A program made the translations under genes and the position numbers. Below the pieces are notes generated by a model. It saw only the letters and a program-made list of their open reading frames with translations. It was not told the origin of the DNA and did not search any database. DNA of 64,000 bases from an uncultured virus (IMG/VR IMGVR_UViG_3300025543_000015) (Duplodnaviria > Heunggongvirae > Uroviricota > Caudoviricetes > Crassvirales): the IMG/VR virus record IMGVR_UViG_3300025543_000015; one strand, given 5' to 3'. Of the stretch, positions 26,101-42,983 are shown piece after piece; the first letter of the stretch is position 1; the number at the start of each line of letters is the position of its first letter.

Positions 26101-29100
26101 AAGGAGCTGCTGAGGTAGTTAGAACAAATAAACAAAGCAACCTTAAAGCTGATGTGGATGCTGTAGGTATTGCACATGTTAAGAGCACTAAGTGGTATAG
26201 AGGTTTAACAACCAACCAAAAGGATGCACTTAACAAGAAAGGTATCTCAGAGATATTAGGTGGTATGGAAGCTTCATTAAGAAAAGGCTCACAACCTAAT
26301 AAAGAAGGTAAAGCTTTTAGAAATACAGTAAAAGAGGTTACAGGTCAAACAGACCAATCTAGAACTATTGTATCAACTGAGGCTAAGCTTCTTAAAGATA
26401 AATTCAAAGCTATGGAGCGTGGTGCTAAGATTGGTGCTGCAGAGATAAAGAAATTGAAAGCTGAGTTTATTAAAGAGATTTCTGCTAAGCTTAAGGAAAT
26501 AGTTAATAACAAATCTATGTCACTAGCTGAGGCTCGTAGAATATTATCTGCAGTTAACCAGCTTACATTTAGTAACTACGATAGAGTTGCACCATTGGTT
26601 GACAAGGTTATTGACACTATAGAAAATAAAGGTATCAGAAGACAAATAAAACAGACTAAGACTAGATTAAGAAAGTCTTCAAGGTCTGAGAGAAATCCTG
26701 TTAACATGAGAGAGCTTGCAAAACAAGCTGTTAAAGTTAATGAGGCTCACCTTACTTATGCTCAAAGAGTAATATACAATGATATACTATCTGAAATAGC
26801 TAACGGATTCAAAGCTTCTTCAAATAAGAACTACAGAATGCCGAATGAAGAGGATATGATTAAGTCATTAGAGGCTCTTAACAAAGCTGCAGATACAGCT
26901 AGGTTACAGAAGTTAGCTGAGACAATGGGTATTGATGGCTCAAACCTTACTGTTGATGAGCTTGTAGCTTTATTAGAGTCTGAAAATGTAGACGAAGCTA
27001 TTGATGAGATGAAAGCTGAGAAACAAAAGGCAGCTAGAAAAGCTCTTGAGAAACAAGCTGAGTATGCTAGAATGGCGTTAGAGATAGTTGATGAGGCAGA
27101 TATGTCAGAGCAGGAGAGAAAAGACGTTAGAACGCTTCAAAACGCTGATTTAACTTTATTGTCTTCTACAGACCTTAGAGATTTAATTAAGATTGTGGAT
27201 AACATCGCTGAGAATAATAGCTTTGCATCATCCGGAAGTCTAATCTCTAAAGTAAGAGCTTACACAGCTTCAAATGAAGCAGTAGGAGTTTTCAATAAGG
27301 ATGAGTTAAGCATGGTTAGAAAGACTATAATCACAGACTTAAAATCATTAGCTCTTATCTTTAAGAAGGTATTCATGAACACTAAGAAATCGGCTGTATT
27401 TAATAAGCTGTCGGGTCTTGGTAAATTGGGTATGGCTTACACTAGTCACAAGAAAGCTATGAATGCTTTAGCTAAAGAGTACGATAAAATGTTCGCACAG
27501 TTAAGTAAAAAGAATAAAGGTTTAGCTAAGCCGGAGAACACAATGCTCAGAGGTTTAGTTGGACAATTAATTCAAGGTACAACTGCTGAGGATTTTGATA
27601 TAAACAAATCTAGAATAGAAGACCACATAGCACAGTCTAAAAAAGCTCAAGCTAAAAGTACTAGACTAGGTGTTGACGTTTTAGAAAAACAATATGAGAA
27701 ACTAAAAAATCTAAAATCTCAAGATGAGGTTATAAAATATACTAAAGGACTAAACGATGGTAATTGGGAGATAGTTGATTTTTGGTTAAATCACTTTGAC
27801 TCACAAAAGGATGCATTAAAATATAACACTGAGACTATACACGGTAAATCATTTGAAGAGGTTGTGGGTAACTACTTACCAATAAAAATGAAAGCTGATG
27901 GTAAAGTTGTTGAGGATATAGATAACCAACCATTCTTTGATAGAAATGGATTAGCTGCATCTAGTGCATCACCAACTACAATTAAGAGAACTAAGACTAA
28001 GAAGCTTCCTGCAGGTCGTGTATTAGATTTAGATTTTGATTCAGTGATGTTTAATAAAGCTTCTGCAGTATCTATTGACATAGAAACCTCAGCAGCTTAT
28101 AAAGATGTATACAACTTCTTTAGAAGCCCTAACATGGAAAAAATGTTTGGTAATGAAACTATTGGAGTATTTAATAAGAAGTTAGCTGAGATGAGAAAGG
28201 TTCAATTAGGAATTTCTAGTATGAACTTAAATGAAGATGAGGTAACTAAAAATATAACTAAGATTGAAAGAGTTTGGAAATCTGTAGCTACAACTATTGG
28301 ATTAGGTTCTATCACTCAGTACCCTAAGCAGTATATCTCTGTAGCATTTAACGTTATGGCTCACTTAGGTGGACAAAGCGACTTAATGTTCAAAGCTATG
28401 TTTACTGATAAGACTAAAATTCCATTATTAGATATGGTTTCTATATCGTTAAGAGGGGAAACTCAAGCAGGTACAATCACAGGTGGTAATAGAATTTCAG
28501 AAGCTGAAAAGAAAGCTACTAAAGCTATTGCAGGGCAGGTTGCTCAGTTTACAGGTGAGGCTGCAAGTAAAGTTAGGGAGGCACTATTCTTCTCATTAAG
28601 AAAGGGTGATGTTAACGTGGCTAAATCTTCTTGGATTGCTTTCTACCAAAAGTATTTACAGGATGCAGGAGAGACTGATATTGACATGACTACAGAGCAT
28701 TTAAGAAAGGACGAGAAGTTAAGACAAGAGGCAATCTCTTATGCTGAGCTTAAGGTAGAGGAAACACAAATTTCTTCTGATGAGTCTAGAGGCTCTGAGT
28801 TCTACCAATCTAAATCTGTTGATAGGTCTATTTTGAGAAGTATATTCTTACCTTACCAATCGTTCAACATCAACTCAAAAATGAGAATGATGAATGACTT
28901 AGGAATATTAAGTAGCAAGAGAGCTAGTAAAGAAGATAAACGAGAAGCTGCTGCATCTTTAACAGGTACAACTGCTGAGGTTATTACGTTCCACTCAATG
29001 AAGTATTACGTATTAGCTCAAGTGTTTGCTTTAGGTAAATCAGCTTTAGAGGATATGTTCGGATTGGAGCCACCGGAAGAGGATGAAGATGCTAAACAAG

Positions 29101-29606
29101 CTTTTGTATTCAAACAATGGTACTCAGCTTTAGCTAAAGATTTAAACCCCCTATCAATTGGTTCATTTACTGAGGATATTAGTATTGAGGTATTAAACCT
29201 TATTCAATACCTTGCTGAGGCAGAGGGTGACGAAGCTTATATGGATTTCATTAAGCGTAAGAGAGATGACGGAGGACAAATGTTCTACAGATATAAAGAT
29301 AAAGAAGAAAGAGGTCAAGCGTTTGGTGCTAGCTTATTAGGTGGTGGGGGTCTATACCAAATTCCATATACGCAAGCTGCAGAGATGCTTGACAATTTCG
29401 AACTAATTAATACTCAAACTAGAAGAGATGATTATGGTAATTTATTTGAGTATGATTTTGATTCTAGTCAACAACAGTTCTTAAAATTATCATTTGCTGC
29501 AGAGTTTATCTCCTTATTTGGATTAGGTGAAGCAGACTCTAGGAGAGTTATGAGAAAGATTAGAAGAGATATAACAAAGAATACTAAAAAACAAAAAATT
29601 AATTAA
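20157..29606 (+). CDS. giant polyvalent internal virion protein (GNAT-like, SAM-methyltransferase and zincin metallopeptidase domains)
   Basis: 3149 aa; IYIKNGFRPVAR (about 22980), FLDIGASEGG SAM-binding motif (about 23415), TPIHEYGHVW...QEEALATAIG (about 25490-25710). Confidence 0.7.
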   Translation: MNELQEIVKKMIAAGESEENIAIVIKQYNNKATPKEAEVPKGDEAEVVSGVSDSTSAESISSSDSETQNKFPQIERQDPTQEEMDGVNAYVDKLNAPIEIGEDAARAITAPELAKEQKELEAIIASRPIVADNSKEEARLKEINDAFDRLAEPPKSIRKISNEQIAELDKKQDELTTKAVRLAKGTDFSVEEILTNDGTYQDIIKQKNKLHDQKRLEDEVINRVVEDTNSNQDGFFGKVGRMFGGGDEEVTQTAKLSDAIEEEILLSLKGDNRQKEKIAKGYATLDEKETLIANAKVKVITAEKESIINKAKAARAEIEDPAELERTLLNLQTNYDALLGQVGFDKAKGILNNAFEKTDKSQAFDEILSDDGFFGTTADMITTLGEGVTQIALKGTVGFTADIMSSIGDLGFDRDEYSVFDAFSDTVGQITNYNYLPTSKAANTRLFDDAGNLNLTGKTISKSFAETIPFTLAIINDARRGKITNLEVGLGKLVSGTRSAKMTQSLRLIDSAFRHTFSDNIVQAEDLGLTGNDGKIYATTMSSVEGFAEMVMPDTRFFSTTVGDNLKRAFVRDLKSAASKKARVQVAKNFMGNVIGELGEEEIVLAAQDLMGYAMVVGHENSEFWDIANQKQLAAATIIMSTPLSGLNLRRDYKGNIMDFYSKVSENINGITEDLRTELELPHHTTETKQQITNAISWANNLNKAITLAPEGVTGKQVDLLMEKEALVQEKKNLDPAFHAPINEKIKALEAKIEPMNAKTKEVTAAAEKKQKEEDAKRKEREQAARAKRAAAKDVGTRKTSETTETKSVEQQGVQAEGKKEVGKPYTAEEVQETTDAKAFVVAQQTAMANRKEDSKQVEILDEKTAQKIVDDGGKLFVTSDGKSGGYVKKDGYMGGLFKDPTANRSQAAKVLQEARVKAGGKFFDAFGINTETEKGTTLEDIYIKNGFRPVARLSFDANQAPKGWEQTNLKERPDNVFFVYDPAYKAKIGEGQRMENYDDAYKLAESFKKGNQNTAFFTGKAAEASSKVPYKPVLKVVDKNSPVAKAYDIYSAGGNFTGHISKMIAGFAEKQIKVAEAIVKGKFKSFLDIGASEGGLVKTVASLGVDKAVGIDPNTQMIANFNSTPAVKGAELRQEAFLASWTEGDGTKINEFKPKEKFEVVNEDFAFQFMNNDRKAQVEAVKGMMTDDGVFITSEKFHTANSEANEQKKYDHQKKYFNESELTEDKQTIISGMASDMVGDTEYFQTLKDNFAFVEEFWNAGDFKGYLASDSQAKLNEMKKNIGDLSSEFTDKESQTSNENLAKVEAEAEQLNNELEDFLGEANPNLQLDSKKEITSEEKKQELVAEATAMMEAVEGDGFTEEAFTAENEPKVEVTPITVKENSKLASSLKKMGLKDLVGKKVNLVMADQLKVGTVDINGKKLRRMGGHFFPLIKELRGKVAWASINETAAIKIVRGAIKSDYTVVYNMYPNAVDSNLAILETMIESVAALPKAVNKQVFEEFKTMLQTGVYGEGGRDTEKVRKFAAEAKNFGDIVAGIGTLGVDTKAAILKKALPSKRVKASTKLGRILQDNKIDIEDLRALNVEQFAAELPAGAMTMVLEVHDKNGNKVTSETEREALMTPAQQKAEGLPTHQNYDIYVRGKAVAMLEETVPFWNMYKSAMSTINAKVTGLLKHGKGEKARAFTAKEAYSNAMRSADSTASQSKGLSEPDVSMYEKFISLLGRAFPSVQVITDTAEFNTLMENLTAKALTTKSGKVYGAVYQGKLYLNSGLANFNTPIHEYGHVWINTVKETNKSLYNKGMSLVKGSEYEASILESKEYTKVTKQMLKEGATQEEVDNYIQEEALATAIGDKGEAFVKAAQNKNFTNWLNQLFSFVKKLTGISKYSAKQLQDITLGEFTQAVAVDIMSGNEVFKKGQVQTLNDALQLSMGTGKSLQEIVEFAREKGYEDAVIKAALAKQGFTRVQAETALATIIPKAVAKGAAEVVRTNKQSNLKADVDAVGIAHVKSTKWYRGLTTNQKDALNKKGISEILGGMEASLRKGSQPNKEGKAFRNTVKEVTGQTDQSRTIVSTEAKLLKDKFKAMERGAKIGAAEIKKLKAEFIKEISAKLKEIVNNKSMSLAEARRILSAVNQLTFSNYDRVAPLVDKVIDTIENKGIRRQIKQTKTRLRKSSRSERNPVNMRELAKQAVKVNEAHLTYAQRVIYNDILSEIANGFKASSNKNYRMPNEEDMIKSLEALNKAADTARLQKLAETMGIDGSNLTVDELVALLESENVDEAIDEMKAEKQKAARKALEKQAEYARMALEIVDEADMSEQERKDVRTLQNADLTLLSSTDLRDLIKIVDNIAENNSFASSGSLISKVRAYTASNEAVGVFNKDELSMVRKTIITDLKSLALIFKKVFMNTKKSAVFNKLSGLGKLGMAYTSHKKAMNALAKEYDKMFAQLSKKNKGLAKPENTMLRGLVGQLIQGTTAEDFDINKSRIEDHIAQSKKAQAKSTRLGVDVLEKQYEKLKNLKSQDEVIKYTKGLNDGNWEIVDFWLNHFDSQKDALKYNTETIHGKSFEEVVGNYLPIKMKADGKVVEDIDNQPFFDRNGLAASSASPTTIKRTKTKKLPAGRVLDLDFDSVMFNKASAVSIDIETSAAYKDVYNFFRSPNMEKMFGNETIGVFNKKLAEMRKVQLGISSMNLNEDEVTKNITKIERVWKSVATTIGLGSITQYPKQYISVAFNVMAHLGGQSDLMFKAMFTDKTKIPLLDMVSISLRGETQAGTITGGNRISEAEKKATKAIAGQVAQFTGEAASKVREALFFSLRKGDVNVAKSSWIAFYQKYLQDAGETDIDMTTEHLRKDEKLRQEAISYAELKVEETQISSDESRGSEFYQSKSVDRSILRSIFLPYQSFNINSKMRMMNDLGILSSKRASKEDKREAAASLTGTTAEVITFHSMKYYVLAQVFALGKSALEDMFGLEPPEEDEDAKQAFVFKQWYSALAKDLNPLSIGSFTEDISIEVLNLIQYLAEAEGDEAYMDFIKRKRDDGGQMFYRYKDKEERGQAFGASLLGGGGLYQIPYTQAAEMLDNFELINTQTRRDDYGNLFEYDFDSSQQQFLKLSFAAEFISLFGLGEADSRRVMRKIRRDITKNTKKQKIN

Positions 29607-30292
29607 TGATTCCAACAAATAAACAAAAGAGAGCAGCCCACCTTAGATGGTGGGTTGCTATATTTCCGGTAGGTGCTGTAGCTGTAATAAGCTCACCCTT
29701 TATAGCTCCTGTAGCTTGGTTAGTAGAAAAAGTGCTACCAAATAATAATCCCTTATGGTGGTGGTTAGATGATGAGATACACGACCCTAAAATGAATGAG
29801 GATTGGTTAGAGTTTAAACAACGTAAAGATTGGTGGGCTTGGATAGATTGGCACTGCTTTAGAAATTCAATGTGGAACTTAAAAGCTTCATTAACACCGG
29901 AGAGTTCTATTGACTTCTGTAAAACTAATGATGAGGTGGTAGTGGAATTGATTAAATATGATGTAGTTAGAAATGGTCAACCCGTACCAATAGATACACC
30001 ATGCTTAGAAATGCCTGTGGTTCGTTGGATTGATAAACACGGTAACGATGGTTGGAATACTACATCCGGAATAAAAGTAAATGAAGAGAAGACAGCTTGG
30101 GGAGAGTTACACTATTGGTACACAGCCAACAGTCAACTAAACTTTAGGGAAGGTTTTGTTAGAGAGAAGACAGGATATATAATCCATGGTAAGTTTCCAT
30201 TCTTCGGTAAGAAGACCTACTACCACAGGGTAGCTAAAGGAGCTAACGAAAAGCGTTATGTCTACACAAATAAGAAACAGATTAAACCTTAA
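29606..30292 (+). CDS. Trp-rich hypothetical protein, possibly membrane-associated
   Basis: 228 aa with hydrophobic N-terminus; coupled to the previous gene (TAATG). Confidence 0.65.
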   Translation: MIPTNKQKRAAHLRWWVAIFPVGAVAVISSPFIAPVAWLVEKVLPNNNPLWWWLDDEIHDPKMNEDWLEFKQRKDWWAWIDWHCFRNSMWNLKASLTPESSIDFCKTNDEVVVELIKYDVVRNGQPVPIDTPCLEMPVVRWIDKHGNDGWNTTSGIKVNEEKTAWGELHYWYTANSQLNFREGFVREKTGYIIHGKFPFFGKKTYYHRVAKGANEKRYVYTNKKQIKP

Positions 30293-30297
30293 ACAAG

Positions 30298-30333
30298 AAA
30301 ACCCCCAACCATATCGGAAGGGGGTTTATTTTT
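30298..30333. terminator. bidirectional terminator at convergence of + and - gene blocks
   Basis: AAAACCCCC-AACCATATCGGAA-GGGGGTTTATTTTT. Confidence 0.75.
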
Positions 30334-30334
30334 G

Positions 30335-30402
30335 TGGTCACAGTAGGGATTGAACCTACGACCTATCCCTTATGAGGGGAGTGCTCTACCTCTGAGCTAT
30401 GT
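30335..30402 (-). tRNA. tRNA-CAT (Met or Ile2) with 5' acceptor strand truncated; probable pseudo-tRNA
   Basis: D arm TAGCTCAGAGGTAGAGC, loop CT-CAT-AA, T arm GTAGG-TTCAATC-CCTAC, 3' strand TGTGACC-A; only ACA of the 5' strand pairs. Confidence 0.7.
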
Positions 30403-30404
30403 TG

Positions 30405-30488
30405 TAGCGAGAGTGGGACTCGAACCCACGGGGTCTTTCGACATGGGGATATGAACCCCACAAGCTTCCATCTACTGACTACCTCGCT
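30405..30488 (-). tRNA. tRNA-Met(CAT), initiator-like anticodon stem, long variable arm
   Basis: AGCGAGG/TCTCGCT acceptor, TGGGG-TTCATAT-CCCCA, variable hairpin GTC-GAAA-GAC, GTGGG-TTCGAGT-CCCAC. Confidence 0.8.
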
Positions 30489-30498
30489 ATATATTATG

Positions 30499-30506
30499 CA
30501 AATATA
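30499..30506 (-). promoter_or_regulatory. TAnnTTTG promoter for the CAT tRNAs
   Basis: TATATTTG on - strand 10 nt upstream of the tRNA. Other - strand boxes at 31184, 32121, 34409, 35050, 45750, 51960, 52500, 58224 and 61311. Confidence 0.7.
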
Positions 30507-30554
30507 AGCAAAATTATTTACATAATGTTACATTAACTAACATTTAACTTTTAG

Positions 30555-30641
30555 AGCAGCAGGTGAGATTCGAACTCACGGTGTGACATTATCTGACTAG
30601 CTTGGAAGGCTAGTACAATCGACCAACTATGCGACTGCTGC
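30555..30641 (-). tRNA. tRNA-Gly(TCC) with 17-nt variable region
   Basis: GCAGCAG/CTGCTGC acceptor, U73, CTAGC-CTTCCAA-GCTAG, GTGAG-TTCGAAT-CTCAC. Confidence 0.85.
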
Positions 30642-30647
30642 AATTTG

Positions 30648-30720
30648 TAGAAACAATAGGATTTGAACCTATGACCCTCTCGGTATCAGCGAGGTGCTCT
30701 ACCAACTGAGCTATGCTTCT
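30648..30720 (-). tRNA. tRNA-Ile(GAT)
   Basis: Canonical cloverleaf, loop CT-GAT-AC. Confidence 0.9.
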
Positions 30721-30726
30721 ATTTAG

Positions 30727-30800
30727 TACTCCCTCTTGGACTCGAACCAAGGGCATTCCCCTTAAAAAGGGGGAGCTCTAACCAACTGAGCTAAGGAAGC
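30727..30800 (-). tRNA. tRNA-Lys(TTT)
   Basis: Canonical cloverleaf, loop TT-TTT-AA. Confidence 0.9.
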
Positions 30801-30805
30801 AATTG

Positions 30806-30878
30806 TGGAGAAGAAGGGAATTGAACCCTCGAGGCTTGCAGTGCAAGTGCAAGTGTCTAGCCAACACGACACATCCCC
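30806..30878 (-). tRNA. tRNA-Ala(TGC)
   Basis: G3:U70 pair, loop CT-TGC-AC, GAGGG-TTCAATT-CCCTT. Confidence 0.85.
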
Positions 30879-30881
30879 ATT

Positions 30882-30913
30882 AAAAAAGCCCTAACAAATA
30901 AATGCTAGGGCTT
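30882..30913 (-). terminator. attenuator terminator 1, upstream of tRNA cluster 1
   Basis: AAGCCCTAGC-ATTTATTT-GTTAGGGCTT-TTTT ending 3 nt before tRNA-Ala. Confidence 0.85.
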
Positions 30914-30938
30914 CGGATACGTTAAAATTACCTACAAT

Positions 30939-31013
30939 CTAACATAGCATGGAAAGCCCTAGGAAGTTTCTCCCCACGGTCTTATCAATCGCTATTGTAA
31001 TAATTGTGTTCAT
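30939..31013 (-). CDS. leader peptide 1, MNTIITIAIDKTVGRNFLGLSMLC
   Basis: 24-codon ORF containing CTAGGGCTT, the exact complement of the terminator 5' arm. Confidence 0.75.
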   Translation of the reverse strand: MNTIITIAIDKTVGRNFLGLSMLC

Positions 31014-31030
31014 TGAATGTTTAATCTTTT

Positions 31031-31159
31031 TTACTTGTTAATTTTGTCGTCAATCTTGTCAACGATGCCTGCTACTTTTTTTGCTAGGCTTGGATTGTTT
31101 CTTAATACTAAGAAGAAGCCTACTGCTCCTACTACTACTCCTGCTATAAATGAAATCAT
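31031..31159 (-). CDS. small membrane protein (42 aa)
   Basis: MISFIAGVVVGAVGFFLVLRNNPSLAKKVAGIVDKIDDKINK, downstream of promoter 31184-31191; not in the ORF track. Confidence 0.7.
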   Translation of the reverse strand: MISFIAGVVVGAVGFFLVLRNNPSLAKKVAGIVDKIDDKINK

Positions 31160-31215
31160 ACTTATACTTTTTTAAGTTAGGTGCAAATATACAAAAAAAT
31201 TTTTAATACCACAAA

Positions 31216-31629
31216 TTAATCAGTACCTTTTATTTTTGCATTAGCTACACGATAGTTTCTTTCATCTCTTTTCTTAGCTTTATGTGCTTGAAGTTTCTTA
31301 TCATAAGCAATTTTCTTCTCAGCCCTTTTACGGTCTACAGGATTGGTAGTTCTTGTGTAAGTACCATCATGAGATTTATAACCGGACATTTTACCACCCT
31401 TATTTTTAATGGTAGTGCCTTTATACTTTACCGAAGGTCTGTACTCGCTGTCTTTATTGCCTGTTTTAGCATCTTTTACAGATTTACTAGAAACCTCATA
31501 CTTGCTACCACTTTTTGTTTTAGCTATGTGTGTTTTAGCTTTCTTTTTGTCGGTGTTAGCTGTACTAGCTAATTTTGTTCTTGGGTCAGACAGCTTTACA
31601 GGGTCTGATTTACTTTTTCGTTTTGCCAT
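31216..31629 (-). CDS. Lys-rich basic protein
   Basis: 137 aa, highly basic. Confidence 0.65.
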   Translation of the reverse strand: MAKRKSKSDPVKLSDPRTKLASTANTDKKKAKTHIAKTKSGSKYEVSSKSVKDAKTGNKDSEYRPSVKYKGTTIKNKGGKMSGYKSHDGTYTRTTNPVDRKRAEKKIAYDKKLQAHKAKKRDERNYRVANAKIKGTD

Positions 31630-31631
31630 GT

Positions 31632-32105
31632 TTATTGTTTTTTAGATTCAATTACAAAGATACTAAAATTATCCTTACCCTTAAAAAGCTCATCTAATTG
31701 ACTCTCCCAAAAGTCTATATCTTCATAGGGTCTAAAATTTATAGGTGCTATAGGACTCATCAACCCTGTTCCACTGTGACCAATATTGAAAATTGAATGT
31801 GTTAGCTCATGAAAAACCACTAACTTCAACACTGCTTTATCTAAAGAACAGTAAGAGCTCATAGCCACTATATAACCATCCTTTGTGGCTATCCCTAATG
31901 TTGGGTAGTTAAGGAGATTAGTTAATACAATCATCTGCATGTTATTTATATGTGGAGTAACATCTATACACCTCTCTGCAGCCTCTGCTATATATTCTTC
32001 CACTATTGGCTTGAGTATTGGGTCAATGTGCACATAGGAAGTTTTTTGACCAAAAAAATCCCCTGTAAATAATACAAGGGATATTAACACTAATAATTTT
32101 TTCAT
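31632..32105 (-). CDS. secreted/membrane zinc metallopeptidase (metzincin-like)
   Basis: Signal peptide; HELTHSIFNIGH and LM Met-turn. Confidence 0.75.
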   Translation of the reverse strand: MKKLLVLISLVLFTGDFFGQKTSYVHIDPILKPIVEEYIAEAAERCIDVTPHINNMQMIVLTNLLNYPTLGIATKDGYIVAMSSYCSLDKAVLKLVVFHELTHSIFNIGHSGTGLMSPIAPINFRPYEDIDFWESQLDELFKGKDNFSIFVIESKKQ

Positions 32106-32128
32106 ATCTACCTGTTTTTACAAAGATA

Positions 32129-33055
32129 CTAAAAATTGTTATACGCCACGTTAAAGACTTTAAGACCTAAAGCTCGTGCTCGTCTAACTACTTGTAGCCT
32201 GTCATCAAACATTCCTACAATATAATTATCCTCAGCAATCTTTCTCCACATCTCCTCCTTCACAACCCAATCCGGTCTTTGGTCACCTTTAGGTCTGATG
32301 TATATTTCATCATAAAAAATACCATTATCAGATAACCACTTCTTAGTCTCATCTATACAAACAGCATCTCTGCCTGTACATATTATAACTTTAGTGCTAG
32401 TCATCTCTTCATAGTAGGGTGTCAAAGCTTGTGATATAACCTTAGTAGGATAATCTATTACATCCTCCCCAACCTTGTGCCAATCATAAGGACTTCTAGT
32501 AGCCCTGTCCATATGAGACAATGTTCCATCAATGTCAAATATTACACAATTAGTGTTATCGGGATTTTGACTAAGCTGAACCGGAGTAAAATCTATAGGA
32601 TTTTTAGCCAACTCTACCATTAAACTAGTAAATCTGTTATATTGCTTCTCAATTACGTGCTCTCCAACGCTTCTGCTTCTCATAGAGTCTCTATTTAAGG
32701 CATCTGCCTTGCTGATTTCAAATATCAAAACCTCAGCGTGTACGTTCCAATACTTAAATCTCTCTAAGTACTTGTATGTCAAGTGTGTAGCATCCGCTAT
32801 TACTGTCTTACCAAAATTAAGACCTTCATTGATTAAAGTGTCTTCGTACCTAGTAACCTTCTTTTCAAGACCTGCTACATCATTTCTTAAGTAGTAATCT
32901 TCTATACCTGACTCGGTAAAGCCAAACATAAGCTCTCTGATTTTATCCCTATTGACTATAGTATACTTTGAAGGGTCTTCCAACCACTTCTTGTGAGCCC
33001 AAGTACTTTTACCCGAGCCGCTGATTCCAATTGTTATTATTAAATTTCCTTTCAT
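32129..33055 (-). CDS. pseT: polynucleotide 5'-kinase/3'-phosphatase (T4 PseT-like)
   Basis: P-loop GISGSGKST, VNRDKIR, HAD motif FDIDGT, TGR, RPDWVVK, FDDR. Confidence 0.92.
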   Translation of the reverse strand: MKGNLIITIGISGSGKSTWAHKKWLEDPSKYTIVNRDKIRELMFGFTESGIEDYYLRNDVAGLEKKVTRYEDTLINEGLNFGKTVIADATHLTYKYLERFKYWNVHAEVLIFEISKADALNRDSMRSRSVGEHVIEKQYNRFTSLMVELAKNPIDFTPVQLSQNPDNTNCVIFDIDGTLSHMDRATRSPYDWHKVGEDVIDYPTKVISQALTPYYEEMTSTKVIICTGRDAVCIDETKKWLSDNGIFYDEIYIRPKGDQRPDWVVKEEMWRKIAEDNYIVGMFDDRLQVVRRARALGLKVFNVAYNNF

Positions 33056-33071
33056 TACTTTATTAATTTTA

Positions 33072-34379
33072 TTAGTTCAAAGATTCTATATCAGCTTCAC
33101 CATTATCTAGTTCTTGGCTTTCAAATTCTAAGAACCTAAAGCTCTTAAGCTTATATGACTTACATTCAAATAAATCTTCCACTCTCACAACTACACCTTC
33201 TTCCGGTACTTTGTTTGTACACATGAAGCAGTCTTTTTCGTTGTAAGCCTTCTCTAACCTCTCTATGAAATTTTTTCTCCAAGTCTCTAAGGTAGTGCTG
33301 TAATCAGTGTTGTACCAATCACCTGCTTTACCATAGAAGAATAAGTGAGAAGCTGCTAATCCAACTCTATCACAGAACTCTTTAATCTGAGGGTAGGTAA
33401 GCTCAGTAACTAAACCATCTGGAGTGGTATTGGTGATTCTGTATACCTCTAGCTTGTGCCAAACATTACCTTGGCAACCATAATCAAAATGTTTTTGAAT
33501 AGCTTTACCATTTCTATCGTAACCTAACATTTCACCATATAGAGTCCAACCTTTAGGTATATGCTCACCAATATCATTTTTTATAGTCTCCCACAAGTCA
33601 TAACCAAAGAAGTGGTCTTTAGATTTTGGGTCTTCTAGGTTAGCATTCTTAACCACCTTTCTAGAGCCATAGACTAAATCATACACTAGTTCTGATACAC
33701 TTGCACCAAAAAATTTAGAAACCTTCTCTATAAGGCTTAATTTACGTTTTACTAAAACATTTCCGACCCACCAAGATGTACCGTGTGTTTTATATGTAAT
33801 AGAAATTAAATCTGTAGGCTCAATTTTGTGTATGTTCTTACGAAGATTTTCAGTATCAACATGTAGATGTACTTGACCTTCTACCAATCTTGAAAGCTTT
33901 GGCTTCTTACCAACTCTAGCTTGTGCACCACCCTTAACAGGTACTTGGTACTTCTCAACTAGAAGTTGACCATTAATAGTGTCAAACTCTTTACCTACAT
34001 AATCACCAATATAGCCATCCAACCTACCCCACTGCTCAACAAGTCTAGCAGGTACAATATATCCCATGGATTTCTCACCACGTAGTTTCATAGCCTTAAC
34101 CCTGCAGTTATCCTCAAAGAAACCTTTTTGGTAAGGGTCTGCATTCAATGTATTGTCTCTAAATGAGTTTGTTGACGAGAGTAAGTTTTGAGATATTTTA
34201 CTCTCGATTGGAAAATAGACGTAAATGTCGCCCTCGTTGGCATCTAAACCTGTAATGACATTGTTGAAGTCAATTGAGACCATTTGTAGCCTGTCAGCGT
34301 TAGGATGCTTCTTAAGACCCTTTAACGATACCACCTTACATAAGTAGTTTGGATTTGCGTTTTTACTAATTTCTAACAT
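33072..34379 (-). CDS. RNA ligase (Rnl2/DRB0094-like) with N-terminal tRNA-binding OB-like domain
   Basis: KHPNADRL N-terminus, motif I TYKTHGTS, LYGEM, PEEGVVVR, YKLKSFRF. Confidence 0.85.
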   Translation of the reverse strand: MLEISKNANPNYLCKVVSLKGLKKHPNADRLQMVSIDFNNVITGLDANEGDIYVYFPIESKISQNLLSSTNSFRDNTLNADPYQKGFFEDNCRVKAMKLRGEKSMGYIVPARLVEQWGRLDGYIGDYVGKEFDTINGQLLVEKYQVPVKGGAQARVGKKPKLSRLVEGQVHLHVDTENLRKNIHKIEPTDLISITYKTHGTSWWVGNVLVKRKLSLIEKVSKFFGASVSELVYDLVYGSRKVVKNANLEDPKSKDHFFGYDLWETIKNDIGEHIPKGWTLYGEMLGYDRNGKAIQKHFDYGCQGNVWHKLEVYRITNTTPDGLVTELTYPQIKEFCDRVGLAASHLFFYGKAGDWYNTDYSTTLETWRKNFIERLEKAYNEKDCFMCTNKVPEEGVVVRVEDLFECKSYKLKSFRFLEFESQELDNGEADIESLN

Positions 34380-34455
34380 TTTATTTAAGTTTTATATTAA
34401 ATTCTATGCAAAGATAAGTAAAATAATTTACATGACAATAAAAAAAGTAAAAAAG

Positions 34456-34527
34456 TTTTCCTAGAGAGATTTGAACTCCCACTTCAAGGCTCGTAACCAA
34501 GTGTTCTATCCATTAAACTATAGGAAA
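34456..34527 (-). tRNA. tRNA-Arg(ACG), weak anticodon stem
   Basis: TTTCCTA/TAGGAAA acceptor, loop TT-ACG-AG, GGGAG-TTCAAAT-CTCTC. Confidence 0.75.
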
Positions 34528-34618
34528 ATAATTACCCTAGGGTTTTACTGCAGGTAGCATACCTAGGGTGATAGTGAAGTATTTTTGTCACAAATTTAGC
34601 ATATAATTGTGACAGTAG

Positions 34619-34701
34619 TACCGAGTGTGGGCTTCGAACCCACAAGACACAAGGTCGGCAAGTTTTAAGCCTGCTGCGTTTACCAGTTTCACCAACTCGG
34701 C
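34619..34701 (-). tRNA. tRNA-Leu(TAA)
   Basis: Type II cloverleaf, loop CT-TAA-AA. Confidence 0.9.
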
Positions 34702-34711
34702 ATTTAATCTG

Positions 34712-34792
34712 TAGCATCGGTGGGAATCGAACCCACAAAACTCTAGGGTTTAAGCCTAGGCACTCTACCATTCGCTTTTACGTCACGATGCT
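34712..34792 (-). tRNA. non-canonical tRNA with TAA anticodon (Leu?)
   Basis: AGCATCG/CGATGCT acceptor, CTAGG-CTTAAAC-CCTAG, short variable loop, enlarged D region. Confidence 0.7.
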
Positions 34793-34807
34793 ATTTTGTA
34801 ACATTAG

Positions 34808-34877
34808 TCTAAAAGGTAGGTAACGCTCCTACTTACTCCTACTTCCAAGGCAGGCATGTTACTATAATCGCTTCTAG
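34808..34877 (-). tRNA. tRNA-Pro(TGG), atypical T loop and reduced D arm
   Basis: CTAGAAG/CTTTTAG acceptor, CCTGC-CTTGGAA-GTAGG, T arm GTAGG-AGCGTTA-CCTAC. Confidence 0.65.
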
Positions 34878-34881
34878 GTAT

Positions 34882-34909
34882 AAAAAAACCTCCTAATTGC
34901 TTAGGAGGT
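34882..34909 (-). terminator. attenuator terminator 2, upstream of tRNA cluster 2
   Basis: ACCTCCTAA-GCAA-TTAGGAGGT-TTTTTT ending 4 nt before tRNA-Pro. Confidence 0.85.
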
Positions 34910-34945
34910 CTTTATCTTTATTAATTTAAAACTAAAACATGAATA

Positions 34946-35032
34946 CTAATACCTAAAGTTTACGCATAAAGAGTACTCCCAATTTCCACTAGGTTGTTCC
35001 AAAAGCTCTATATGTAAGCGTAATTTTCTCAT
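34946..35032 (-). CDS. leader peptide 2, MRKLRLHIELLEQPSGNWEYSLCVNFRY
   Basis: 28-codon ORF 17 nt downstream of promoter 35050-35057; contains the antiterminator segment. Confidence 0.75.
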   Translation of the reverse strand: MRKLRLHIELLEQPSGNWEYSLCVNFRY

Positions 35033-35079
35033 TTTTATTATTATCTATGCAAATATACGAATTAAATTAATACCCCTTT

Positions 35080-35271
35080 TTAAAATCTATTAATCCTTTC
35101 GGTAAGAATGTTCAAATAATTAATCATAGCCTTTAGCTGCAGTTTTAAAAGGTCTTGGTCATCTTGGTCTAGCTCATCAAAAGCCTCTGTTAAAATAAAC
35201 TTACCCAACTTCTCCATCTTATCTTTGAGTTCTGTTCCCTCATCAATAACTCTTTGTTTGTAGTCTTCCAT
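35080..35271 (-). CDS. small helical protein (crAss001_48-like)
   Basis: MEDYKQRVIDE..EL..K..KL..FI...LL..Q...M..Y..IL..RI pattern. Confidence 0.65.
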   Translation of the reverse strand: MEDYKQRVIDEGTELKDKMEKLGKFILTEAFDELDQDDQDLLKLQLKAMINYLNILTERINRF

Positions 35272-35273
35272 AA

Positions 35274-35435
35274 TTAAATTAGTTTTTTGTAGTGTACAAT
35301 AAGCTTATGCACCTTACTGTCGTAGTAGCTATCGAACTCTTTGTAGCCTTCGTCATCTTTTTGATACAGTGCATAGAAAACATTTCTAAGCTGCTTTGAG
35401 GGTGACACCTCTTTTATTTTTCTAGTCCTACTCAT
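35274..35435 (-). CDS. small hypothetical protein (53 aa)
   Basis: MSRTRKIKEVSPSKQLRNVFYALYQ...; fills the intergenic gap; not in the ORF track. Confidence 0.6.
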   Translation of the reverse strand: MSRTRKIKEVSPSKQLRNVFYALYQKDDEGYKEFDSYYDSKVHKLIVHYKKLI

Positions 35436-36129
35436 TTCCTTTAAGTTTTAAGTATGCTGAATAATAAGCAGAAATCTCTTCTGTTATCTCTTGAACCTGT
35501 TTTAATACCTCAACACATCTCTTTTTTGAGATTGGTCTATCTATTAGTTCAGCCTCTTTAGTTAAGGTAAGCTCCTCACCTGCAAAAGCATTCCCTGCTC
35601 TGCCAATAAGTACTACAGAACCTTTGTCGGGATACTTCCCAAACTCTTGTTCTAGAGCTGCTGCGTAGATGTCAACCTGTAGGTAATCATCAGCTTTATA
35701 CTCCGGTGCTCTCTTCTCAATCTCACCCGTCTTGTAATCAACTAATTCCTTAACATACATAACAGGTTCTTCACCCCCCTTGTTACCAATCTCCGGAGCA
35801 GTGTTTGTATCTATAAATCCTAATACATAGAACCCTTTCATCTTAAGCTTAATCTTCTTCTCAAACTCATCAAAGTGAGGTAGGGTCTGCAAAAACTTAG
35901 CTTCATCCTTATCCCACGCTGAGTAATCATTGTTCTCATAAGCCTCACCAACCTTGTGACCAAAATCTCCGTACTTCTGTAGGGCTGCATTGTCATCCGG
36001 TTCACCAAAGAAGTACTTTCGCATGTACTCTCTTTTATTACGTTTCCATTTACTAATCTGCGAGTAGGAGATATAATAATTTCCGTCCTCGTCTTTTCTA
36101 GGTAATACTAATTGCTTTACTTTACTCAT
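35428..36129 (-). CDS. PD-(D/E)XK (Cas4/RecB-like) nuclease
   Basis: ISYSQI, GFID, LVDYKTG, QVDIYA. Confidence 0.8.
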   Translation of the reverse strand: MSKVKQLVLPRKDEDGNYYISYSQISKWKRNKREYMRKYFFGEPDDNAALQKYGDFGHKVGEAYENNDYSAWDKDEAKFLQTLPHFDEFEKKIKLKMKGFYVLGFIDTNTAPEIGNKGGEEPVMYVKELVDYKTGEIEKRAPEYKADDYLQVDIYAAALEQEFGKYPDKGSVVLIGRAGNAFAGEELTLTKEAELIDRPISKKRCVEVLKQVQEITEEISAYYSAYLKLKGNE

Positions 36130-37046
36130 TACTTTCCTGCTTTTAGGGCTCTTACATGAGCTTTGGTTATCTTAGTCTTCTTAGCTTTAGCTGTTGAGGT
36201 CATAGCATTTAAAACCTCAAGTGCTTTGTCTTGCTCATCTTCACTCATAGCATCTATTAAAGCTTTGAGCTCCTTCTTCTCTGCAGCACCGTACTTACCA
36301 CCGTTAAATAGTTTGGTGATTAAATCATCTTCTACTACAGGAGCAGGCTCATCATTAGCAGCTTCTAGAGGCTCTTCTAATCTCATCTTCTTGAAGACAT
36401 TTATTGTTGTGATAACATCCTTTCTACAGTAAGCTGAAATTCTATCCAAACCTTTACGACCCTCATTCCAATAAGTTTTAGCTACATCAGCTCCGGAAAT
36501 ATCATCCTTTGGTGAAGGTAGTCCAAAAGCTGTGGCTACATTAATTAAAGATGCTCTCTCAAAGCTTGAACTCTTCCACTCTAGTGCTAAGTCAATGTGG
36601 TCTATCTCCCACGGTTTCAATCCGGATACATCCAACTTATCGTGTGGCTCTATACCATTGATAACCATACGCTTGTATACAAATGGTGTATCAAAACCAT
36701 TGTTAACGAACCCTACTAGGTTACACTTAATGTTACGCTCAACTAGTTTGTTGAACTCATTAAGCAGCTCTCCCTCACTATCATGGTCTAATGTTATCAA
36801 GTAAATCTTACCTTTAACAATCTTACCAACCACAATGCTAACTATCTTGGCAAACTCCGGATGCAGCCCTGCACCTTTAGAGTAGGACTCAATAATCTCA
36901 TCGTTACTGAGCTCCCCTTTCTTATTTACCTTATACGCCCAACTGTCAAACAGTGGTGTATCCAATTCTAACTGCTTCACTACAGATGCAGTCTCAATGT
37001 CGAAGAATAATAAATTCTCCTCTTTTAACTTTTTTAATACTCTCAT
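36129..37046 (-). CDS. PolB-related 3'-5' exonuclease (DEDD)
   Basis: FFDIET, GFVNNGFDTPF, YCRKDV. Confidence 0.8.
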   Translation of the reverse strand: MRVLKKLKEENLLFFDIETASVVKQLELDTPLFDSWAYKVNKKGELSNDEIIESYSKGAGLHPEFAKIVSIVVGKIVKGKIYLITLDHDSEGELLNEFNKLVERNIKCNLVGFVNNGFDTPFVYKRMVINGIEPHDKLDVSGLKPWEIDHIDLALEWKSSSFERASLINVATAFGLPSPKDDISGADVAKTYWNEGRKGLDRISAYCRKDVITTINVFKKMRLEEPLEAANDEPAPVVEDDLITKLFNGGKYGAAEKKELKALIDAMSEDEQDKALEVLNAMTSTAKAKKTKITKAHVRALKAGK

Positions 37047-41408: not shown

Positions 41409-42983
41409 CTACTCAGTATCCGAGTTCACTATCGTACATTCAGTCATTAAGACTAAAGCAGCTACAGATGCAGCATTTTCTAGTGCTACTCTTGTTACCT
41501 TCTTAGGGTCTATAATACCCTTATCTATCATTTCACAATATTGACCTGCTTTAACATCGTACCCGTAGCCTTTATCTAGCTTATCAATACTACCAATAAC
41601 GAAGACTACATCTTGACCTGCATTTGTAAGGATTACTTCTAATGGTTTTTTAATAGCTTGTATAACTATATTGTAACCTGCTTGAATATCCTTATTAGTT
41701 GAGAATACAGACTCTAAGAGAGGTATGCAATTATACAATGCAATACCACCTCCGGCAATAATTCCCTCCTCTATAGCAGCTCTAGTAGCTCCTAGTGCAT
41801 CATCTATACGGTCTTTCTTCTCCTTCATCTCAAGCTCTGAGTTTGCACCCACATATAACACTGCTACACCACCCGATATTAGAGCTAACCTAGATTTTGT
41901 TTCATCTACATCAAACTTACTGTCTGCAGTCGCAATTTGCGACCTCAAGGTTTCTTTAAGGCTTTCTACAGCATCTTTGTCTCCATGACCCCCAATAAAT
42001 GTTGTTGAGTCTTTGGTTAACATAACTTTGTCACATGAACCAAACATCTCCGATGTAAATTGGTCAAACGTTAAGCCTTTAGCTTCTGATACAGATGTAC
42101 CACCTGTAATGGTTGCTATGTCATCCAAGGTGTAGTTTCTTTTTTCACCTAGGAACGGTGCTTTAATAGCTGCACACTTCCATCCACCTCTTACTTTGTT
42201 TATAACTAACGTTGCAATAGACTCTCCGGATATTTCACCACCTATAACAAGTAATGCCTTATTCTCCGGCACTGTCTGTAGAATAGGTAGTATATCATTA
42301 ATGGTATCAATTTTATTTGGTGTAATAAAAATCAATGGGTTCTCTAATGTAGCTGTTCCATCCTCTTCTGTAGCAAAACCTGCAGAGAGCATACCTCTAT
42401 GTACCTTAAGACCTTCTACAACATCCACGTAGGTGTCGAAAGTTGTTGACTCCTCTACTGTTATTGTTCCTTCTCTAGATACTTTTGATATAGCATTCTC
42501 AATAATCTCACCAAGACTATCATCATTGTTTGCAGATAAAGCTGCCACTTGTTTAATCTGTTCTTTAGTTTCAATTGGTTTGGCTTGACCTTCCAACTCT
42601 TTAACTACTAAAGTTACAGCCCCATCAATACCCCTCTTCAAGTCAATGGGATTAGAGCCTGCTTCTAAGTGCTTAACACCCGACTTAATCATTGCTTGAG
42701 CTAACACAGTGGCTGTAGTTGTTCCATCACCTGTATCTTCTACAGTCTTAGCTGAAACACTCTTCATCATCTGTGCCCCCATATTCTTCTCGGGGAAGTT
42801 AGAGAATATCTCCTTAGCTACAGAATAACCATCCTTGGTTACATGTGGTGGTCTACCTACACGTTCTATTACCACGTTCCTACCCATAGCACCCATGGTA
42901 ACAGATACTGCATCTGCTACCAAGTTTATACCTGCGATAAGTTCACCTCTTGAATCCTCTTTAAATTTTAGTCTCTTACTCAT
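41409..42983 (-). CDS. groEL: chaperonin GroEL
   Basis: VTKDGYSVAKEI, GDGTTTATVLAQ, KEKKDRIDDAL, GIIDPKKVTRVAL. Confidence 0.95.
   Translation of the reverse strand: MSKRLKFKEDSRGELIAGINLVADAVSVTMGAMGRNVVIERVGRPPHVTKDGYSVAKEIFSNFPEKNMGAQMMKSVSAKTVEDTGDGTTTATVLAQAMIKSGVKHLEAGSNPIDLKRGIDGAVTLVVKELEGQAKPIETKEQIKQVAALSANNDDSLGEIIENAISKVSREGTITVEESTTFDTYVDVVEGLKVHRGMLSAGFATEEDGTATLENPLIFITPNKIDTINDILPILQTVPENKALLVIGGEISGESIATLVINKVRGGWKCAAIKAPFLGEKRNYTLDDIATITGGTSVSEAKGLTFDQFTSEMFGSCDKVMLTKDSTTFIGGHGDKDAVESLKETLRSQIATADSKFDVDETKSRLALISGGVAVLYVGANSELEMKEKKDRIDDALGATRAAIEEGIIAGGGIALYNCIPLLESVFSTNKDIQAGYNIVIQAIKKPLEVILTNAGQDVVFVIGSIDKLDKGYGYDVKAGQYCEMIDKGIIDPKKVTRVALENAASVAALVLMTECTIVNSDTE

Follow-up and report, generated by a model that had tools for sequence, protein, structure and literature searches.

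The window, as we call the whole stretch of DNA analysed here, comprises 64,000 nucleotides of an uncultured freshwater phage of the Crassvirales (IMG/VR record IMGVR_UViG_3300025543_000015; G+C content 36.4%), which encodes a DNA polymerase, a primase/helicase, a ribonucleotide reductase, a GroEL-like protein, and structural proteins. It contains two tRNA arrays, one of which is headed by a leader element (34882-35057, minus strand) made up of a promoter, a short open reading frame (ORF), and an intrinsic terminator. The genes surrounding this leader are likewise on the minus strand, and the element lies within a replication and nucleotide-metabolism module that occupies a single strand throughout. 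What phages gain from their tRNAs, and at what stage they employ them, is debated: they may compensate for codon usage, replace a host pool that has been degraded, or help the phage escape defences that cleave tRNAs. On balance, and with some hesitation, we read the leader as a multivalent attenuator that senses translation in the manner of the actinobacterial whiB7 leaders and gates read-through into the phage tRNA array, rather than as a sensor of leucine and arginine.

Architecture of the leader element

The promoter −7 box, TATATTTG (35050..35057, minus strand), is of the TAnnTTTG type that is typical of Bacteroidota promoters, and it is invariant in the window and in two full-length homologues, L004 and L029, which are described below. 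The motif TAnnTTTG precedes many genes of the window, and its extended form TAnnTTTGC occurs 28 times, compared to 15.85 +/- 4.02 times in shuffled sequences, with a count of 28 being reached by 1 of 100 shuffles. The leader ORF, MRKLRLHIELLEQPSGNWEYSLCVNFRY (34946..35032, minus strand), starts 18 nt past the −7 box and consists of 28 codons and a stop codon, the latter lying 36 nt ahead of the terminator hairpin. A first-pass annotation of this DNA had placed a promoter at 35057-35050, followed by a leader with TTA, CGC, TTA, CTT, TTG, and CCT codons; both are indeed present, on the minus strand.

Four regions capable of alternative pairing can be delineated along the minus strand. The six letters of region 1 (CCTAGT, codons 14-15, 34988..34993) complement 34983-34978, and the 1:2 hairpin that the two can form is weak (6 bp). 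Region 2, the putative 5' arm of an antiterminator, occupies ORF codons 17-23 (34966..34983). A conserved spacer (34916..34945) leads from the stop codon to region 3 (34901..34915), which would serve both as the 3' arm of the antiterminator and as the 5' arm of the terminator. The remainder of the terminator (34882..34900) consists of the loop (34900-34897), the 3' arm or region 4 (34896-34887), and a T-run (34888-34882). The terminator hairpin (34910-34887) has 10 pairs, a GCAA loop, a predicted stability of −14.7 kcal/mol, and a run of seven T after it. It is real and conserved; as read from the alignment, the changes in its stem in L004 preserve pairing (A-T to C-G and C-G to T-A). A covariance-model search (cmscan) of positions 29000-37000 at E <= 1 yielded 14 Rfam matches, none of which lies in 34881-35060; they are to tRNA-clan models, the Y-RNA-like YrlA, or, at chance level, Plastid-ycf2.

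The first-pass annotation had also described a 14-bp pairing with one G:U that would sequester the 5' arm of the terminator. This pairing was borne out: 34982-34966 pairs with 34915-34901 over 14 bp with one G:U, at a duplex energy of −12.5 kcal/mol, or −14.4 kcal/mol with one extra pair. It is the best duplex that the terminator 5' arm can form with the 124 nt upstream, and it beats about 98% of dinucleotide shuffles (−8.5 +/- 2.1 kcal/mol; 1.6% of 1000 reach it). As a control within the window, the same statistic was calculated for 20 terminator-like rows, representing approximately 17 distinct hairpins. It is the two hairpins directly preceding tRNA arrays that score lowest (z = −2.93 and −2.66), that of the leader being the lowest of all; an overlapping pair of rows at 52310-52276 has z = −2.1, and the remaining rows range from −1.1 to +1.3.

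A sister element before the second tRNA array

The second of these hairpins belongs to a sister element (30882..31013, minus strand) that precedes an Ala-Lys-Ile-Gly array and forms part of a promoter, small ORF, and terminator module spanning 30882-31191 of the same strand. Its 24-codon ORF (31013..30939) contains CTAGGGCTT, a perfect 9-bp complement to the terminator 5' arm (region 2, 30962-30954); the terminator (30913-30887) and its T-run end 3 nt before the tRNA-Ala gene, which begins at 30878. Codons for Ile, Ala, Lys, Gly, and Met abound in the ORF, with 6-7 of the 13 codons at positions 2-14 being cognate to its own array, including the rare GCG and GGG, and a strong 1:2 hairpin can form as well. 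In folds of the nascent transcript that mask a ribosome footprint, region 3 of the sister element is predicted to pair upstream with a probability of 0.37 when no ribosome is present. This rises to 0.74-0.83 if one is stalled at codons 6-14 and falls to 0.05 if it has reached the stop codon. In this model the sister element behaves like a textbook attenuator. A wobble-degenerate pattern built on its leader matched the window phage alone, and the sister element is accordingly without comparative support. The lone tRNA-Glu gene of the window (53306-53229) is preceded by no such leader.

A class-II-like tRNA at 30488 is preceded by a promoter of its own. Long variable arms, unusual for Met and Gly tRNAs, are found in two tRNAs on the minus strand, at 30404-30488 (anticodon CAT, 85 nt) and 30554-30641 (anticodon TCC, 88 nt), and a 63-nt tRNA-like piece with CAT (30340-30402) comes next after them.

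Conservation of the leader in related phages

Scans with DNA and peptide patterns yielded two full-length homologues, L004, a viral contig, and L029, a contig from a marine metagenome. A fourth variant was found on one contig each in X5 and X6, which come from the same sample; it spans 34803-35075 and shows 12 differences and 2 gaps. X7 contains part of a fifth variant (34809-34945), and the sequence in X4 is identical to the window. A 17-mer from the spacer hit 16 stretches in viral contigs, of which 2 are homologous (the window phage and the L004 contig) and 14 are unrelated chance matches, and a 20-mer from the start of the ORF matched only the window phage and L004 contigs. Peptide-pattern scans of viral contigs confirmed 2 of 30 and 2 of 31 candidates, which were the same two contigs; among metagenome contigs 3 of 176 candidates were confirmed, only L029 being full length, and among genome contigs 0 of 73. 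In the other two confirmed metagenome contigs, L030 and L031, the match is confined to residues 11-24 and no tRNA is present; they were dropped. Cultured phages offered little: the sole blastn match was to the tRNA-Leu of 46 Listeria phage records, and tblastn with the RNA ligase and the DNA polymerase found no close cultured relative, the best matches being 44% (Synechococcus phages) and 61% (Pseudomonas phages), respectively.

All full-length copies retain the promoter box, the length of the ORF, the position of its stop codon, the spacer, the terminator, and a Pro(TGG) element right after the terminator. Indels relative to L004 and L029 fall outside the ORF only, and the only ones that touch it in the X5/X6 contig adjoin the stop codon. 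The tRNAs that follow the Pro element differ, being Leu-like, Leu, and Arg in the window, Glu, Gln, and His in L004, and Glu-like, Gln, His, and Arg in L029.

The upstream site that pairs best with the terminator 5' arm is the same in all three sequences (window, L004, and L029), lying in the ORF from nt 50-51 onwards. The pairing energies are −14.4, −11.4, and −15.7 kcal/mol, respectively, compared to about −8 +/- 2 kcal/mol in shuffled sequences, and the observed values are reached by 1.6%, 6.1%, and 0.4% of 1000 shuffles. Across the aligned columns of the three sequences, 38 of 42 cells pair, whereas controls with a displaced partner reach 46-66%. A single two-sided change, from A-U to G-C, is seen in the lower antiterminator helix of L029, and the RNAalifold consensus of the whole leader is a long hairpin of the antiterminator type. 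According to our reading of the alignment, the X5/X6 variant keeps the upper helix intact, while a one-base deletion shifts the two outermost pairs of the lower helix. The 1:2 hairpin (CCTAGT with ATTGGG) keeps 6 of 6 pairs in all three sequences, one G:U becoming G:C in L004.

Codon content and synonymous conservation of the leader ORF

Codons 2-14 are those at which a stalled ribosome would leave region 2 free. In this span, which was picked after the sequence had been seen, 4 of 13 codons are cognate to the tRNAs of the array under strict wobble, or 5 of 13 when CCT is included, compared to expected fractions of 0.063 and 0.080 derived from 33 long ORFs (binomial P = 0.007 and 0.002). Among 400 small ATG-initiated ORFs of the window, 8 reach the strict count and 4 the count with CCT. 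One of the cognate codons, CGC, accounts for just 0.03% of the 15,386 codons in the 33 long ORFs. With the union of Pro, Leu, Arg, His, Glu, and Gln, a set assembled post hoc, the count rises to 9 of 13 codons, a number reached by 2 of the 400 small ORFs. The corresponding stretch of the leader peptide, L-R-L-H-I-E-L-(L/Q)-E-Q-P, consists almost entirely of residues for which a tRNA is present at the locus in some of the three phages.

The same part of the ORF is unusually constant at synonymous sites. Where residues 2-15 are identical between the window and a relative, the codon is identical as well in 12 of 13 cases (L004) and 12 of 12 cases (L029), compared to a background of 0.56 in the flanking genes (P = 0.006 and 0.001). 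Taken together, codons 2-15 of the leader (24 of 25) differ from codons 2-15 of the flanking genes (30 of 48) with a Fisher P of 0.0012, and in codons 16-28 the rate equals the background (4 of 7 in each relative). The sole synonymous change in codons 2-15 is from CGC to CGT, both of which a tRNA with an ACG anticodon should read under the standard wobble rules.

These features bear on the simplest alternative, namely that the ORF is simply a small gene of the phage, equipped with a promoter and an intrinsic terminator of its own, that the tRNAs are expressed by constitutive leaky read-through, and that the 2:3 complement and the codon match are incidental or are relics of a duplicated terminator. 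Small ORFs, promoters, and terminators are, for instance, interspersed with the tRNA genes of phage T5. Conservation of the peptide extends in part to its C-terminus (W18, E19, L22, N25, R27, and Y28), with four synonymous changes relative to L004, as would be expected of such a gene, but residues 16, 17, 20, 21, 23, 24, and 26 are radically changed among the relatives, which is poor conservation for a functional 28-residue peptide. Regions 1 and 2 together resemble a weaker copy of the terminator hairpin, so the cross-pairing could come from duplication; the persistence of Leu codons in relatives without Leu tRNAs and the non-significant covariation, both detailed below, also fit. This explanation does not, however, account for the strong upstream complement at both pre-array terminators and at no other clean terminator of the window, for the codon enrichment at both leaders, or for synonymous sites being frozen in codons 2-15 only, and a stem of −14.7 kcal/mol followed by seven T is not obviously leaky. 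We consider it unlikely, though it deserves more weight than the two alternatives that follow.

The conserved spacer

The best conserved non-coding block of the leader is its spacer, in which 25 of the 26 positions from 34945 to 34920 are identical in the window, L004, and L029. In both relatives, part of the spacer pairs with the 3' end of the leader ORF. GTTTTA occurs in it as a tandem repeat, and L004 and L029 share its three-codon frame ATG TTT TAG (34940-34932). A promoter within the spacer was considered and rejected, as no TAnnTTTG is found there.

A block of this kind could be the binding site of a trans-acting factor, perhaps an antitermination protein of phage or host origin or an RNA-binding protein recognizing the spacer, which would override the terminator and place the tRNA array, the RNA ligase gene, and the polynucleotide kinase-phosphatase gene under temporal control. 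The location of the element in the single-strand replication and nucleotide-metabolism module would suit such control, as would the absence of any role for the spacer in a ribosome-based model. Against this, no candidate factor has been identified, the 17-nt core of the spacer is homologous in only the window phage and the L004 contig among its 16 viral-contig occurrences, the sister element has no spacer like 34945-34916, and neither the codon match nor the frozen synonymous sites would be explained. We therefore regard control by a trans-acting factor as quite improbable.

The downstream tRNA genes and the need for read-through

The first-pass annotation had read the downstream genes as tRNAs for Pro, Leu, Leu, and Arg, a description that holds firmly for the last two. 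The tRNA-Leu(TAA) (34618..34701, minus strand; 47.5 bits) and the tRNA-Arg(ACG) (34455..34527, minus strand; 53.2 bits) are called by both ARAGORN and Rfam, whereas the Pro-like and the second Leu-like elements are degenerate. The former (34808..34877, minus strand) has a TGG anticodon and a retained acceptor stem, which begins at 34877, 4 nt past the T-run; it is not called by ARAGORN or Rfam even at relaxed settings, and it aligns with, and is homologous to, the canonical tRNA-Pro(TGG) of L029. The latter (34711..34792, minus strand) has a CTTAAAC loop (anticodon TAA) and scores 24.8 bits with Rfam, where the cut-off is 29; ARAGORN reports it only once the threshold is relaxed, and then assigns it another anticodon. 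A non-canonical 7-nt T-loop, AGCGTTA, is common to the Pro-like element (34828-34822) and the Glu(TTC) tRNA of L029 (~2853-2859), which suggests a shared variant rather than random decay.

A search for TAnnTTTG found none between 35050 and 34599. Since no such promoter lies between the terminator and the tRNA-Leu, the elements through tRNA-Leu require read-through of the terminator, as had been claimed for the tRNAs. The claim is less secure for tRNA-Arg, which is preceded by a candidate internal promoter box, TAAATTTG (34591..34598, minus strand). This box is situated inside an inverted repeat, GTCACAA...TTGTGAC (34560-34610, minus strand), between tRNA-Leu and tRNA-Arg, and L004 and L029 have a TATAAT-like box at the matching place.

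Genomic setting and mosaicism

Between the two tRNA arrays are an RNA ligase-like gene and a polynucleotide kinase-phosphatase gene (32129-34379, minus strand). The former is annotated as an RNA ligase in the relatives, with Pfam matches just under the cut-off, and the latter has a match to HAD_PNKP at 1.5e-34; we take the two to be a T4-like tRNA-repair pair. Just upstream of the leader lies a gene of the crAss001_48 family encoding 63 residues (35080-35271, minus strand). This gene is missing from L004 and L029, and the X5/X6 contig has 203 other letters in its place. Elsewhere in the window are an ORF of 3149 residues (20157-29606, plus strand) and the gene for the GroEL-like chaperonin (41409-42983, minus strand; PHROG 4.6e-140).

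Both flanks of the leader module are thus mosaic, the upstream gene being different or missing and the downstream tRNA sets differing among the relatives, a pattern that would also result if the module were a mobile promoter and terminator cassette, kept as a recombination junction for swapping tRNA arrays and their neighbors without any sensing. Promoter-stem-loop cassettes are known from T4-type phages. On the other side of the array, the promoter and 5' end of the RNA ligase gene are also unusually conserved, with raised codon identity (11 of 14 in both relatives), so the conservation at these junctions may partly reflect recombination. Conservation of the module is, however, patchy, with codons 16-28 and the terminator stem varying at or above background, and a junction would predict neither the 2:3 complement nor the codon match. 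We therefore consider a cassette without sensing very improbable.

Discussion

Proposed mechanism

Returning to the reading of the leader as a translation-sensing attenuator, we envisage the following sequence of events. RNA polymerase would start about 10 nt before the ATG, from the TATATTTG promoter. Fast ribosomes would run over codons 17-23 (region 2), allowing the hairpin 34910-34887 to form and transcription to stop at about 34882. If ribosomes were instead slow or stalled in codons ~4-14, region 2 would be free to pair with 34915-34901 before the 3' arm of the terminator is made, and with the antiterminator formed, the polymerase would continue into the tRNA genes, the leader then being removed by RNase P. 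The codons sensed would be of several kinds, matching the tRNAs found at the locus across the three phages (Pro, Leu, Arg, His, Glu, and Gln). As the stretch L-R-L-H-I-E-L-(L/Q)-E-Q-P mirrors these tRNAs, the leader could respond to translation or tRNA supply in a multivalent way and so adjust the production of phage tRNAs by feedback. From the parts, their conservation, and the statistics, all of which were established by the analysis, we infer that the ORF is probably translated, that the leader may switch, and that the switch would operate in this direction.

Folding with a masked ribosome footprint agrees with part of this scheme. With a ribosome stalled at leader codon 6 or 11, the antiterminator is the predicted minimum-energy fold of the nascent transcript, with a probability of 0.75-0.89.

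A more far-reaching version is that the array is under closed-loop control, with a leader written in the array's own codons that opens the terminator when it is read slowly, as could follow host tRNA depletion or cleavage by anticodon nucleases. The two sensors flanking the RNA ligase and polynucleotide kinase-phosphatase genes would then constitute a tRNA-homeostasis island, and the leader would co-evolve with the array, as suggested by the change from CAA to TTG at codon 11 where Glu and Gln tRNAs have been swapped for Leu. We put this forward tentatively, being inclined to doubt it somewhat more than to believe it.

Observations that weigh against an attenuator

A number of our observations weigh against the proposed attenuator, one of them concerning the ribosome that terminates translation. 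With a ribosome at the stop codon (34948-34946), the antiterminator is still predicted to form, with probabilities of 0.82 (window), 0.69 (L029), and 0.49 (L004), because the stop codon is 18 nt beyond region 2; such a ribosome falls approximately 3-18 nt short of region 2. With region 2 left unmasked, only timing or steric hindrance could tell the two states apart. The claim of an attenuator in the first-pass annotation is supported as to architecture, by the unusual complement, the codon enrichment, and the frozen synonymous sites.

The pairing evidence has its own weak points. The complement in L004 is not significant taken alone (6.1% of shuffles), and in each relative 1-2 positions of the lower antiterminator helix fail to pair. 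The covariation score observed in the three sequences is reached by 169 of 500 shuffles, a sample of three giving no statistical power. The 1:2 hairpin, having just 6 bp including G:U pairs, is not the minimum-energy fold in the window. The 30-nt spacer, for its part, is more strongly conserved than the second half of the leader ORF and yet has no role in the ribosome model.

Further difficulties arise from the codons and the genes that they are supposed to serve. In addition to the post hoc choice of codons 2-14 and the possible contribution of recombination noted above, the Leu codons TTA, TTA, and CTT are kept in L004 and L029, whose arrays are without Leu tRNA, so codon and tRNA do not track one-to-one. 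There is only one informative substitution, codon 11, which is CAA in L004 and L029 and TTG in the window, where Leu tRNAs but no Gln tRNA are found. The Leu-Leu pair is not conserved, being Leu-Gln in L004 and L029 and Ile-Leu in the fourth variant, and unlike the trp, his, and leu leaders, the ORF contains no conserved run of a single codon. The first two elements of the array are degenerate, and judging from its sequence, the TAAATTTG box may drive tRNA-Arg independently. Finally, the host can be inferred only from the promoter motif and the crAss001_48 domain. The retention of Leu codons without a Leu tRNA, the lack of conservation of the Leu-Leu pair, and the degeneracy of two of the tRNAs count against the specific proposal of the first-pass annotation that the leader senses leucine and arginine, in place of which we favor a multivalent sensor.

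Significance and comparison with known systems

Should the multivalent attenuator prove correct, it would mean that some phages monitor translation capacity and respond to it, rather than expressing their tRNAs constitutively. It would also broaden the reach of leader-peptide attenuation, beyond amino-acid operons to tRNA genes and to the phages of a phylum with little known RNA regulation, and would provide a compact, testable part in the form of a 165-nt sensor. Within the portions of the literature covered by our full-text searches, no description of attenuator control of tRNA genes was found.

Among known systems, the T-box riboswitch resembles the leader in being a terminator/antiterminator leader that reports on tRNA status. 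It differs in that it binds uncharged tRNA directly, does not need an ORF, and acts on amino-acid and aminoacyl-tRNA synthetase genes; the cmscan of 29000-37000 at E <= 1 matched no T-box model of Rfam.

The resemblance to the amino-acid leaders trpL, hisL, leuL, thrL, pheL, and ilv is closer in architecture. Like these, the phage element has a short promoter-proximal ORF, with codons that may relate to the product controlled, followed by an intrinsic terminator, and the 5' arm of its antiterminator would lie in the 3' part of the ORF, with the 3' arm doubling as the 5' arm of the terminator. Unlike them, it is phage-borne, has a Bacteroidota-type promoter, and would control tRNA genes instead of biosynthetic enzymes. 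Its leader mixes Leu, Arg, His, Glu, Gln, and Pro codons without a conserved single-codon run, its 1:2 hairpin is weak, and its stop codon lies so far downstream that a ribosome terminating there would leave region 2 uncovered.

The nearest functional analogue is the whiB7/wblC leader of Actinobacteria, in which an upstream ORF and a rho-independent terminator/antiterminator sense general translation stress (PMC10274678). The amino-acid composition of that upstream ORF sets which shortages are sensed, and knock-down of tRNAs or tRNA synthetases activates the system (PMC10274678). The analogy is one of function, there being no sequence relationship, and the whiB7 upstream ORF is rich in Ala, whereas the phage leader is not. 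The two would also differ in what they govern. The whiB7 regulation acts on a transcription factor, whereas the phage leader would control the tRNAs themselves, resulting in a direct feedback.

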